In this document: positions 11,734-57,963 of the stretch, one piece after another | Position numbering within the stretch: position 1 is the first letter of the stretch | Layout: each line of letters begins with the position of its first letter | Assembly (NCBI GenBank): GCA_965153355.1 | Contig: OZ231126.1 | Location: forward strand, 7,564,001-7,628,000 | Length of the DNA: 64,000 nt | Source of the DNA: Flaccisagitta enflata | Lineage: Eukaryota | Direction: 5' to 3' | Position numbers and translations under genes: made by a program | Notes under the pieces: model-generated | What the model saw: only the letters and a program-made list of their open reading frames with translations | What the model was told of the DNA's origin: nothing | The model's database searches: none

Positions 11734-12161
11734 TGCCTTTATTGTCGGTCGGCTTTAAGGAAATAATTCCATTGCCATATCAGTCATCGTCCACCAGTTA
11801 TCCTCCCAACTCATTTGAGATCTTGAGTGCTGTTAGTAACAGCACTCAAGATCTTAAATCATGTACCAAATGAGAATATTCAAGGTCAAGCTATTAAGTT
11901 ATGCCATTCCAGTGACATTCTCCCCATCACCAATCGTCCTGAGGCACTATGAGTATGACAAGCAGTTTGCAATCAATCAACCAATCAAAGCAGATGAACA
12001 ATATCAATCAATCAAACACATGACAATGACCTGAGGTGCCTCTATTCGATCAATAAATTAATAGTATCAATAGTAACCTGAGGCGCAGTTTCAGCCTCCA
12101 TTCAACCTATCAATCAATCAATCAATCAAACAATCAATCAATGAATCAATCACATAATAAC

Positions 12162-12268
12162 CTGAGGCGCAGTGATGGCTTTGGGATTCATCCTCATTTC
12201 TCGATGGGGTTCTCCGCAGTCTGTCATTGCTTTCATTAACACGTGAATGCAAGAAGTCTTTCCAGTCC
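12162..12268 (-). CDS. DNAH5: Axonemal dynein heavy chain exon (AAA2 Walker A: (G)[35 protein letters not shown])
   Basis: AG/GT boundaries, phase consistent with the previous exon; near-identical to recalled DNAH5/8 sequence. Confidence 0.92.
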
Positions 12269-13018
12269 CTAAATAAAAAAAGACAAGCAAATAAGTAAGC
12301 AGTTATTGCTTTCATTAGCACGCGAATGCAAGTAGTCATTCCAGTCCCCGCATGAAAAAAATAGCAAGCAAATAAGCGAGCAGTCTGTTATTGCTTTCAT
12401 TAGCACGCGAATGCAAGTAGTCATTCCAGTCCCCGCATGAAAAAAATAGCAAGCAAATAAGCGAGCAGTCTGTTATTGCTTTCATTAGCACGCGAATGCA
12501 AGTAGTCATTCCAGTCCCTGCATGAAAAAAATAGCAAGCAAATAAGTGAGCAGTCTGTCATTGCTTTCATTAACACGTGAATGCAAGAAGTCTTTCCAGC
12601 CCCTGCATGAAACAAGGCCGGATTCACGGCTACCCAAGTCGCGTGCGGGTGGGCAGGGGCCATATTTGAAGCCACTCCATCATTTGGGCAGAAGCAGTGA
12701 GGCCAAAGACCGCAAAAACTCAAAAAAAGTAAAGTGTGACGGACGGACGGACGGACCGGCGGACGGACGGACCGACAAAGCAGGTTGTAGAGTCGCGTGC
12801 ACGCGACTAAAAAGAGAAAGCAAATGACCTTCATAAGTCATATAATGTACCTCAATTTGCAAGCTTTCAAAGACTCATACTCTTATACCCGCAAACCCGC
12901 AAACCCTTACTAATTAATTTAGGTACAGGGGGATTTATGGAATAACAGGAAAGTATTTTTGTCTTCAAAGTTGAAAGTATTTTTGTCTTCAAATTTAAAA
13001 GTATTTTTGTCTTCAAAT

Positions 13019-13488
13019 TTGATATTCAGAATATGACTTATTCAATTGATGTTTTTGTCCCTGAGTTTTTTGGTTGCTATGAAACCCAAAATTATTTTTT
13101 CTAAAGTTTCTGATTACTAGAATATCAATATTTTGACAAATTTTATTGGGGAACATTTCTCAGAATTAAACTTGCTACAACTTTCCCTCAGTATGGTCTG
13201 TAAGAATATTCACATCACACCTAGCAACCAATAAATGATGCTCCTTAGCAACGGCCAAACAAGCATTATTCTTACAGTCTGTAAGTTACAGAACATAATG
13301 TGGGAAAATTGTAGCAAATTTAAATCTGAGCAATGTTCCCTTATAATATTTGTCAAAGTGGTGATATTCTAGTAATCATAAATGTTCAAAGAAATAATTT
13401 TGGTTTCCATAGCAACCAAACAACTCAGGGACAAATAATCAAACAACTCAGGGACAAACAATGAAACAACTTTTATTTCAAATATCAA
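13019..13488. mobile_element. MITE with long imperfect inverted arms
   Basis: TTGATAT...GTCCCTGAGTT mirrored by AACTCAGGGAC...ATATCAAG; inner arms also complementary. Confidence 0.6.
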
Positions 13489-13591
13489 GTTTATAAAATG
13501 ATATTAAGAAACTTAAATACCTTCCTCCAGTTTAGGCTGTTATTCCACGAACCCCACTGTAAATAATTTGATGTTACCGATTTGATGTTAC

Positions 13592-13643
13592 CTGAAGGTC
13601 CCAGAGCCATCATTCCATGACGCACATTCTGCGTTTCATAAAG
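13592..13643 (-). CDS. DNAH5: Dynein heavy chain exon (LYETQNVRHGMMALGPSG)
   Basis: Canonical splice sites; matches the recalled LFETQRVRHGMMTLGPSG motif. Confidence 0.9.
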
Positions 13644-14145
13644 CTGAAACAAACAAGAAAACAATTCAGGGATGAAAAAAATCCAACATTCATATACATG
13701 TATATGAAAATTAATCATTCCTAAAAGAGTCCGCGCTAGCCGACTGATAAGCATCATTTCACGGCACTGGTGATTTACGAACTCCTCTTTAAGGTATATT
13801 TAAAAGGACAGTTACACTTCTAAGAGTCTACCAAAACACGACCAGTGGTGGTGGAATCGATAAATCTTTTTGCAAAGTACCGATGTAGGTGACAAGTAAA
13901 TTCCATGATGGGACTGAGGAATGGTGAAGTATGGGACTACTGGTGATAGACTCTTACCTGTATCACTTTAAGTATCCATGTTGGGTGACTGATAAGTCCC
14001 ATTTCATTGCAGTGGTGATCTATGCATCCAGCTAATTGATGATATTCTCACCTGTATCACTTTAAGTATCCATGATGGGTGACTGATAAGTCCCATTTCA
14101 TGGCAGTGGTGATCTATGCATCCAGCTAATTGAGGATATTCTCAC

Positions 14146-55419: not shown

Positions 55420-55545
55420 CAGCTCGTCGAAGATGTCTCTCTGATGGACGTGAATTGTGATGAGAGTTTCGTATTTTGTTCTCTCAACTTTCTCCAAATC
55501 ACGAGTTGTTTGATCGATCAGCAAATTCAACAACTCCAAAAATGC
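55420..55545 (-). CDS. DNAH5: Dynein heavy chain exon ([42 protein letters not shown])
   Basis: [12 protein letters not shown] motif; canonical splice sites; 42 codons. Confidence 0.93.
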
Positions 55546-56227
55546 CTGAGGAGACATGTGCAGGGAGAATTTGAAAGACGGGATTATGAATATAAATCAT
55601 TATTCTTGATGTATCCGAACATTTGCCTATGGTAGCCGTCGGCTACTAGCCGCTCTTTGTCTTTCTTTCTCTCTTTGTTTCTTTCTTTCTATTTTTCTTT
55701 CTGTCATTTTTTTCTTTTTTCTTTTTTTCTTTCTTTTTTTCTTTTTTCTTTTTTTTTTTCTGTTTTTTTCTTTTTTTTCTTTTTTTTTTTTTTTTCTTTT
55801 TTCTTTTTCTTTTTTTCTTTTTTTCTTTCTTTTTTTCTTTTTCTTTTTTTCTTTTTTTCTTTTTTCTTTTTTCTTTTTCTTTTTTTTTTCTTTTTTTCTT
55901 TTTTTCTTTTTTTTCTTTTTTTTTTTTTTTTTTCTTTTTTTTCTTTTTTTTTCTTTTTTTTTCTTTTCTTTTTTTTTTTCTTTTTTTCTTTTTTTCTTTT
56001 TTTCTTTTTTCTTTTTTTTTTTTTTTATTTTTTTTTTTTTTTTTTCTTTTTCTTTCTTTCTTTCTTTCCTTCTTTCCTTCTTTCGTTCTTGCAAAGATAT
56101 GCCAGACTCGAGCGCGCACACACACACACGCACACACACACGCACACACACACACACACACACACACACACACACACACACACACACACACACACACACA
56201 CACACACACACACACACACACACACAC

Positions 56228-56326
56228 CTGATTTGTTGCTCCCATGACTTTCTTGTCGTATTTTGCGTTGGAAAGCGCTTCAGTGGCATCTCTCGTCCAG
56301 ATTAATTGAAGACCGAGAAGACTGAC
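56228..56326 (-). CDS. DNAH5: Dynein heavy chain exon ([33 protein letters not shown])
   Basis: Canonical splice sites; 33 codons; phase 0 on both sides. Confidence 0.92.
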
Positions 56327-56778
56327 CTGAAGTTAAAGCACAGTTATAGGCTGACCTGAAGTAAGTACAACTGAGCAATAAAAAAAAAGAGAAAAAAAAA
56401 GAAAAAATAACAACAACAATAACAACAACAACAACAACAACAACAACAACAACAACAACAACAACAACAACAACAACAACAACAACAACAACAACAACAA
56501 CAACAACAACAACAGGGGACCAAATAAAAAGGCCTGCTTCATTTCCACAAGCGAATGAATAAACAAACAAAAGAACGGACGAACAAAAAAAAAGAAAAGA
56601 AAGAAATGAGCGTACCAGGTACAGAGGGACAAATGAATTCAATTACTCTTCCTGTAGGATCGGACAAAGACAAAAAGAAACAGAAAAACAATTGAGCAAA
56701 CATTTAAAACAAAGAGCAAAATCATAATCAATCATTCAAGACGAAGAAAATAGAACAACTTCACTCTGAGTCACTGAC

Positions 56779-57045
56779 CTGGGCTGGGAATGACTGCAAG
56801 AATTCTAGCAACTGAAATCCTTGATCGTTGATGGCGACGGCGGCAGTTCTGATGACCAGATGCAAGGACCTTTGAGATTCGATGAGCAGATTGTTGAGCC
56901 ACACTTCCACACTGCCCTCGGCCTTGACGGGCCGTTCCAACTCGATCGTCTCGCCCTCTTGAGAGTAAACGGCGAGAATCTTGTCGTATTCGCGATCGTG
57001 AAATTTGACTGTCTTGATGTTGTCAAAGATCGAGAGCAGATGAGA
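56779..57045 (-). CDS. DNAH5: Dynein heavy chain exon ([15 protein letters not shown]...SQEGETIEL...EGSVEVWL...FPAQ)
   Basis: 89 codons; canonical splice sites; matches recalled DNAH5 linker region. Confidence 0.93.
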
Positions 57046-57963
57046 CTGAAAAGAGGGAGAGACAATTGATTGATTAGATGATTGATTGATTGATTGATGA
57101 GAATCTTGTCGTATTCGCGATCGTGAAATTTGACTGTCTTGATGTTGTCAAAGATCGAGAGCAGATGAGACTGAAAAGAGGGGAAAGAAAACGGATTGAT
57201 TGATTAAATGATTGATTAATTGGTTGATTGATTGATTTATCAATCAGAATCTTGTTGTGTTCACGATCGAAAAATTTGTCTGTCATGATGTTGTCAAAGA
57301 TCGAGAGCAGATGAGACTGGAAAGAGGGGAAAGAAAACGGATTGATTGATTAAATGATTGAATAATTGGTTGATTGATTGATTTATCAATCAGAATCTTG
57401 TGTTCACGATCGAAAAATTTGTCTGTCATGATGTTGTCAAAGATCGTGAGCAGATGAGACTGGAAAGAGGGGAAAGAAAACGGATTGATTGATTAAATAA
57501 TATAGGGGTCAGTCAAGGCTGTTTCAATTAATGTCCGCGGTTAAAATATCGCAATCCCGAATTCTTGACTTCTGATGTATCGGCTTTTTTTTTTGTCAGT
57601 CTTTTGTCACGTCGCAGACCGGCCCAATAAAGATCTTAAAATGGTTCAACCTCAATCAAATCATCAAACCATCATCAGATCAGCCCCATATCGCTTTTTG
57701 AGCAGCGGCCACGAAGGAAACAGAGATCTTGCGTTTCTAGCTGTGCCAACTACGGTTACAATTTTTTTTTCAAACACCTGTCAAAATGATCAAATTTGTG
57801 GGTAACAGGAAATTAATAAAAACGTAGCTAATTCCTTTAGATCTCCTGGAGAAAACAGTTACTTTTTGAATAATGACCTGTTGTTTATTTATCTCAATAG
57901 TATATCAATAAATGAACAGATCGTTTGGACAGACACAAACCCATACATGGGTAGACATCAACC

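Follow-up and report, generated by a model that had tools for sequence, protein, structure and literature searches.

How does an intron come to be filled with copies of the exon end that it adjoins? The question is raised by a 64,000-nt stretch of Flaccisagitta enflata DNA (GenBank assembly GCA_965153355.1, contig OZ231126.1, positions 7,564,001 to 7,628,000 of the forward strand), referred to here as the window, in whose own coordinates all positions are given. On its minus strand it carries a gene identified by sequence similarity as a DNAH5-like axonemal outer-arm dynein heavy chain, and beside several exons of this gene lie tandem copies of the exon end together with its splice site, called echoes below. 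These copies are real, and the structure is a new example, probably in a new lineage, of a kind already described, the "mirage" minisatellites of lancelets. The lengthening of introns and the source of new intron sequence are still debated chiefly from single cases; in this dynein gene most of the intron sequence comes from junction duplications, transposon insertions and microsatellites that begin within or next to splice sites.

Dynein exons and their echoes

The gene was located using four dynein relatives as tblastn queries, and among its 26 relatives those with names are dynein heavy chain 5 or axonemal dyneins. Pfam placed DHC_N2 (PF08393) on exon E1 (E = 1.4e-15) and positions 137-305 of AAA_6 (PF12774) across E4-E7; the order along the gene, linker (DHC_N2) and then AAA1 module (AAA_6), is that expected for an outer-arm dynein heavy chain. 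Splice sites and frames were set by reading the sequence, and the frames were verified by hand. The initial annotation of the window had counted eight dynein exons; tblastn and sequence reading bore out their presence and raised the count to nine:

57045-56779, minus strand: exon E1, dynein linker region, DHC_N2 (tblastn, Pfam, sequence reading)
56326-56228, minus strand: exon E2 (tblastn, sequence reading)
55545-55420, minus strand: exon E3, without echo (tblastn, sequence reading)
16737-16638, minus strand: exon E4, AAA1 module, AAA_6 positions 137-168 (tblastn, Pfam)
15792-15680, minus strand: exon E5 (tblastn, Pfam)
14850-14739, minus strand: exon E6, without echo, microsatellites on both sides (sequence reading, Tandem Repeats Finder, TRF)
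14329-14146, minus strand: exon E7 (tblastn, Pfam)
13643-13592, minus strand: exon E8 (tblastn, sequence reading)
12268-12162, minus strand: exon E9, AAA2 P-loop (tblastn, sequence reading)

Echoes were detected using TRF, local alignments and 17-mers with at most 3 mismatches. In addition, four sequencing runs were compared with positions 11700-14440 (the E7-E9 region). The contigs of run X1, which may be the source sample, were made by another assembler, and X3 is a second sample of the same organism. The following echoes were recorded:

57054-57501, minus strand: E1 acceptor-side array, three copies (TRF 57065-57498, period 146; alignments; 17-mers with 0-1 mismatch)
56348-56362, minus strand: E2 weak acceptor-side echo, 14/16, 29 nt upstream of the real acceptor
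15827-16637, minus strand: E4 donor-side array, 10 degenerate copies (motif search; TRF 15902-16605; local alignment)
15637-15652, minus strand: E5 weak donor-side echo, 16/20, 37 nt downstream
14370-14422, minus strand: E7 old acceptor-side echo of exon bases +17 to +70 (43/53 identical; tblastn remnant)
13952-14145, minus strand: E7 donor-side array, two further 94-nt units (TRF 13952-14236, period 94, 3.0 copies, 95%; alignment; X1 and X3 contigs)
13566-13592, minus strand: E8 14-nt exact tandem duplication (TRF; X1 contig 13537-13667, 0 differences)
12269-12616, minus strand: E9 acceptor-side array, four 85-nt units (TRF 12216-12612, period 85, 4.7 copies; alignments; X1 and X3 contigs)
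11935-12161, minus strand: E9 donor-side echoes at offsets of 84, 131 and 223 nt (17-mer with 1 mismatch; 36/43 and 36/45 identical; third by eye)

Strong echoes crossing the junction were found at five junctions of four exons, two on the acceptor side and three on the donor side. The unit repeated at E1 takes in the acceptor plus ~72 bases from the start of the exon, at offsets of 125, 146 and 143 nt; its copies match the exon at 109/117, 100/116 and 94/113 bases in local alignment, retain the AG in three of three cases and are separated by a GATT-type microsatellite. At the E4 donor a 17-nt junction motif recurs in 10 further copies (at most 3 mismatches), all on the gene strand and all within the following intron, giving 11 matches with the real site where chance would give 0.08; none of 100 shuffles reached 11. 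The GT is intact in nine of these ten echoes, and the intron, 845 nt long, consists almost entirely of copies of the donor junction.

The E7 donor unit comprises the last 88 exon bases and the donor. Its two copies (121/126 and 56/60 identical in local alignment) both have an intact donor, and a decayed further unit was seen at 13742-13777. On the other side of E7, a tetranucleotide microsatellite lies between the exon and the old acceptor-side echo. The unit of the E9 acceptor array is made of 32 intron and 53 exon bases, with the AG kept in two of the four copies and lost in two. The three echoes nearer the exon differ from it at 5-8 sites, with equal counts (5 differences) for the two central units, and the distal unit has a single difference in 53; as in mirages, the units at the centre of the array are alike and the boundary unit stands apart. 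The E9 donor echoes have a GATT-type microsatellite between them, and the third lacks the GT.

The remaining echoes are weak or short. Those of the E2 acceptor and the E5 donor were equalled at 5-9% and 6-11% of random positions, respectively, and fall in the chance range. The E8 duplication, whose start is the final base of the exon, repeats the donor with only that one base of exon. The initial annotation had listed six exons with echoes; E1, E7 and E9 held up as strong cases, E2, E5 and E8 did so only in weak or short form, and the strongest case, the E4 donor, had been overlooked. Its placement of the echoes on the intron side, acceptor copies upstream and donor copies downstream, agreed with the alignments, as did its range of unit lengths (14-150 bp claimed, 14-146 nt measured); its limit of one to four extra copies was too low, since E4 reaches ten.

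One further observation concerns the AAA2 P-loop, which reads GPSG-T-GKT in the real E9 exon (12266) and G-A-GKT in the distal echo (12606). The latter form is also that of fish and environmental relatives, and by this comparison the distal echo seems to keep the older state.

Comparison with known systems

The founding paper on mirages is said to be that of Canestro et al. 2002. In two later papers (PMC3087553, PMC3902484), lancelet mirages are described from Adh3, the globins BflGb6 and BflGb9, troponin C and PGBD5, with units of 10-160 bp at 5' and 3' boundaries and many copies with AG or GT. Regular splicing is there undisturbed, boundary units escape homogenisation, and it has been suggested that introns draw sequence from such arrays (PMC3087553, PMC3902484); PMC3087553 calls the mechanism "unclear".

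The dynein arrays resemble them in the boundary-spanning unit, the presence at both boundaries, the range of unit lengths, the retention of AG or GT and the homogenised centre. Head-to-tail units containing exon end, splice signal and intron were found at the E1 acceptor, at the E4, E7 and E9 donors and at the E9 acceptor. Both boundary types occur, with two acceptor and three donor arrays, and the units of 14-146 nt compare with a mirage range of tens to ~160 bp. A homogenised centre with excluded boundary units was found in the E9 acceptor array. The lancelet cases were described gene by gene, with normal splicing demonstrated by reverse transcription PCR, whereas dynein splicing is here deduced from sequence. 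Unlike in those cases, four to seven of the nine dynein exons are affected and one intron is almost wholly echo.

A donor-side parallel is given by the 37-bp variable number tandem repeat (VNTR) in intron 7 of human F7, for which PMC1557585 reports that identical downstream donors are silent and that the most upstream 5' site is selected, a tested rule for decoys on the donor side. Its first unit spans the exon-7 donor and the pseudo-donors follow the real one, as in the dynein donor arrays. The VNTR is a single mammalian array on the donor side only, and it has no bearing on the upstream acceptor decoys of the dynein gene.

The Rogers model, discussed in PMC3087553, derives intron gain from the tandem duplication of an exon segment containing AGGT, with cases in potato RdRp and Drosophila. 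There the GT of copy 1 and the AG of copy 2 become the two ends of the new intron, which at its start looks like the beginning of the following exon and at its end like the end of the preceding one. Common to that model and to the dynein arrays is that exon-derived sequence turns intronic by way of tandem duplication; the model creates introns, whereas the dynein arrays lengthen existing ones. Gain of this type was considered for the intron between E4 and E5 and rejected, as the start of that intron is unlike the start of E5 and the last echo ends ~35 nt before the acceptor.

Human tandem arrays with repeated splice sites, used for alternative splicing, were reportedly described by Zhuo et al. 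2007 (PNAS), and repeated splice sites inside genes are the feature they share with the dynein arrays, whose decoys are, by contrast, predicted to stay silent. No genome-wide survey of junction-spanning duplications was found in the literature searched.

Junction enrichment and origin of the arrays

Echo frequency at junctions was compared with that at other positions of the window, a local form of the genome-wide check proposed in the initial annotation. A probe of 14 exon and 6 intron bases was scored as recurring if at least 16 of its 20 bases matched within 400 nt on the intron side. Recurrence was found at 6 of the 18 junctions; elsewhere in the window the rate over all positions was 11.3% (P = 0.012), or 6.4% with microsatellites excluded (P = 0.0006), and other probe designs gave 5 of 18 junctions with P from 0.002 to 0.11. 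The gene's own introns (44%; 27% without microsatellites) were rejected as a baseline because echoes fill those introns and the comparison is circular.

Tandem repeats are dense throughout the window. TRF covered 15,117 of the 64,000 bases (23.6%), with 15.8% in arrays of period 10 or more, and 60 minisatellite arrays are spread over the 64 kb at about one per kb. Ten of them lie in the 7.0 kb of the gene (1.42 per kb) and 50 in the 57 kb elsewhere (0.88 per kb; P = 0.10), and in-frame tandem repeats of 21 and 60 nt occur within another coding open reading frame (ORF) at 48157-49384. Because array density is not significantly higher at the gene and repeats are present inside another ORF, duplication is taken to be general in the window.

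Of the 5042 nt that make up the seven internal introns, 1020 nt (34-308 nt per intron) remain once tandem repeats, echoes and two transposon insertions are removed. Together with the 845-nt intron made nearly wholly of donor copies, this upholds the earlier proposal that introns here grow from exon-derived sequence. Six of the nine minisatellite arrays in the gene's introns touch a junction. These were compared with a uniform model, in which a unit of observed length may land anywhere but survives only where it lies within an intron or spans a single junction. For introns reduced to their stripped lengths, 4.1 of the nine arrays are expected at junctions (P = 0.14 for the six observed). The apparent targeting of junctions can therefore be a geometric outcome of short introns and selection, provided that the introns were short at the time of the duplications.

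The arrays are most readily read, with reasonable though not high confidence, as mirage-type minisatellites produced by a high general rate of tandem duplication that is filtered by selection in a gene of short introns. Across the genome, stretches tens to hundreds of bases long would be duplicated in tandem at a high rate, probably by slippage, template switching or unequal exchange. Those within the motor-domain exons would break the reading frame and be purged, and those wholly intronic or straddling one junction would leave the mRNA unchanged and persist. Were the introns short at the outset, at ~30-300 nt without repeats and transposons, a tolerated duplication of 80-150 nt would for that reason usually include a junction. 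The arrays would then grow and shrink like other minisatellites, the echoes decaying neutrally and the introns lengthening.

Several points weigh against this account. Echoes at junctions are 3-5 fold more frequent than in the rest of the window (6/18 as against 6-11%), and if the introns are given their present-day lengths, the uniform model places only 1.2 of nine arrays at junctions (P = 0.00016). The assumption of short ancestral introns, which removes the excess, itself presupposes a certain order of events, and the two outer arrays (E1 acceptor and E9 donor) lie in introns now at least 7 kb and at least 12 kb long. The statistics come from one gene with 18 non-independent junctions. Lastly, polyA RNA run X18, of which ~6% of the reads were sampled, had a depth of 0 on E7-E9, with reads only on the repeat at 12712-12803.

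The fold excess, the result with present-day lengths and the six of nine arrays at junctions would be expected if mutation itself were biased to junctions, with breaks or template switches preferring exon boundaries through events linked to transcription or splicing, or through microsatellites at splice sites. Echoes also occur at junctions of three environmental loci (L003, L004 and L008, see below), and a microsatellite lies within 21 nt of 5 of the 18 junctions against a baseline of 14.4%. This last count is not significant (2.6 expected), the excess of arrays is gone with repeat-stripped introns, array density at the gene is not significantly above that in the rest of the window, ten environmental loci gave 6 echoes where 4.2 were expected, and no common breakpoint motif was seen. 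Such a bias is regarded as rather unlikely. The earlier choice between a high duplication rate filtered by selection and a junction-targeted process is thereby tipped to the former on density and geometry; the latter is not needed but keeps some probability.

If a junction excess were found genome-wide, duplication and splicing signals would seem to be linked at the level of mutation; if none were, the gene would be a clean example of short introns and purifying selection mimicking targeting.

Environmental dynein relatives

Ten environmental dynein loci were examined, and echoes were found at 6 of 107 exon ends, where baselines calculated separately for each locus predict 4.2. In L003 the exon corresponding to E3 has a donor echo, and no echo was found in L010, for which 22 exon segments were matched. 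L004 and L008 carry a donor-side duplication of one and the same exon end, with a unit of 159 nt in L004 and, in L008, a further copy located at 1012-1140. In these two loci (L004:1581-1886, L008:836-1137) the exon end and its echoes encode identical 38 residues; all of the 16 variable columns are at third positions, in contrast to the neutral decay of echoes in the window. In three of the columns the pattern is crossed, the real copy of one locus being equal to the echo of the other. The sequences suggest that the copies arose when diverged alleles exchanged unequally, that conversion is still going on, or that the echo is used.

Synonymous-only differences between real and echo copies (16/16 columns) would be explained if exon ends were recycled. 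In the fuller form of this idea, duplication in the lineage is biased to splice junctions, introns are built largely of exon-end copies, and these return to coding position by unequal exchange. This is judged unlikely as a whole; if true, it would offer a natural system in which to measure the growth of introns from exon sequence genome-wide.

L010 is the only comparator covering the region of the intron between E4 and E5 (15793-16637), which has no counterpart in it (11142-11372); relative residues 583-660 there lie in a single exon, and several other intron positions differ too. L010 also has tandem copies of the exon matching relative residues 283-341, at 7116-7286 and 7965-8135, which may be a pair of alternative exons.

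Exon constraint, echo drift and splicing

Where the exons of X3 differ from those of the window, at six sites, the change is always synonymous and at a third position, indicating that the dynein gene is under selection. Changes between echo and real exon, summed over nine copies of which some share changes, are distributed 17:14:13 over the codon positions, with 31 non-synonymous and 13 synonymous. This spread shows that the echo copies evolve neutrally, as non-coding intron sequence, and from the sequences there is indirect evidence that the echoes are not part of the mRNA. The contrast between constrained exons and drifting echoes makes the selective filter visible.

We infer that the spliceosome ignores the decoy sites and that the exon-proximal site is used. 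Among donors, the 5' site lying furthest upstream would win, and the decoys would leave with the intron. Acceptor decoys would have no partner donor, and use of the in-frame decoy that was checked would yield a stop codon. With so many decoy sites intact, the gene is a natural test bed of splice-site choice, and the arrays are a practical hazard to gene predictors in genome annotation.

Selection for the echoes themselves, as alternative or back-up splice sites, as splicing regulators, or as a reservoir of exon ends renewed by unequal exchange, would fit the third-position differences of L004 and L008 and the frequency of intact decoys (both E7 donors, three of three E1 acceptors and nine of ten E4 donors). 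The neutral drift in the window speaks against it, as do units that are mostly not multiples of three (85, 94, 125, 146), the stop codons met in the in-frame cases checked, and the loss of two of four E9 decoy acceptors and one E9 decoy donor. A function of this kind is considered very improbable.

Assembly check

The joins between units were matched with 0 differences each by X1 contigs over 12216-12331, 12404-12501, 12489-12579 and 13537-13667, and with 1 difference over 13964-14079. An X3 contig containing E9 and its first echo differs at 11 sites in 200 nt, as from a haplotype ~5% diverged; this contig then joins 12357 to 12812 and so shows one E9 echo, but short-read contigs can collapse arrays. 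Another X3 contig, running from the E7 donor into its first echo, has a depth of 529, compared with 72-94 for single-copy contigs (5-7 times). The arrays covered by X1 and X3 contigs, in which exon-to-echo and unit-to-unit joins of the E7-E9 region are reproduced, are not assembly artefacts. That the assembler joined two haplotypes or collapsed reads in tandem is scarcely credible: a 10-N gap, 173 missing gene residues and high heterozygosity (~5% between window and X3) would favour it, and the same joins in independently built contigs and the graded divergence of 3-10 copies, a misfit for two haplotypes, oppose it. Metatranscriptome X8 gave matches to repeats only over 11700-14440.

Other features of the locus

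Microsatellites, an inserted element and the assembly gap were recorded as follows:

56117-56227, minus strand: (GT)55 microsatellite, beginning exactly at the GT of the E2 donor (TRF)
14887-15563, minus strand: tetranucleotide run of 677 nt beside E6 (TRF)
14454-14733, minus strand: (GA)140 microsatellite beside E6, beginning 5 nt into the following intron
12613-12811, no strand assigned: short interspersed element of very high copy number (word depth 1e5-1e7), an insertion behind the acceptor array of E9
16842-16851, no strand: gap of 10 N in the assembly, 105 nt upstream of E4

The (GT)55 and (GA)140 microsatellites seem to have been seeded by the splice consensus. The short interspersed element has a GACG-repeat tail and reaches a word depth of up to ~1.6e7 in two DNA runs; contigs from marine metagenomes and metatranscriptomes contain it too, as do polyA RNA reads. 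The X3 haplotype, in which 12357 is followed directly by 12812, lacks it, and the insertion is therefore polymorphic.

Residues 416-588 of dynein relative P0010 (AAA_6 positions 1-136) had no match in the window by tblastn at E < 5, and beyond its residue 810 none was found at the same threshold; the 173 missing residues include the AAA1 P-loop. The interval between E3 and E4 (38.7 kb, 16852-55419) holds transposon ORFs and other genes. Given the missing residues, the gap and the foreign ORFs between these exons, the dynein locus is incompletely assembled or interrupted. The ORFs of the interval include PIF1/Helitron-like and non-LTR reverse transcriptase ORFs, a metallophosphoesterase ORF and one that is acidic. 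In a protein atlas the nearest clusters, which give leads only, were from Ctenophora for the reverse transcriptase and from Cnidaria (score 0.99) for the PIF1-type helicase; Rfam gave no match.

Downstream of E9, at 832-6557, is an apparently intact Ty3/gypsy-type retrotransposon (gag and a pol ORF of 1431 residues), whose relatives, with up to 89% identity, were found only in marine metagenome assemblies; of the 120 best matches, 119 were in ENA assemblies and 1 in Logan. Upstream of E1, at 57955-58716, an XK-related protein gene occupies the strand opposite to the dynein gene.

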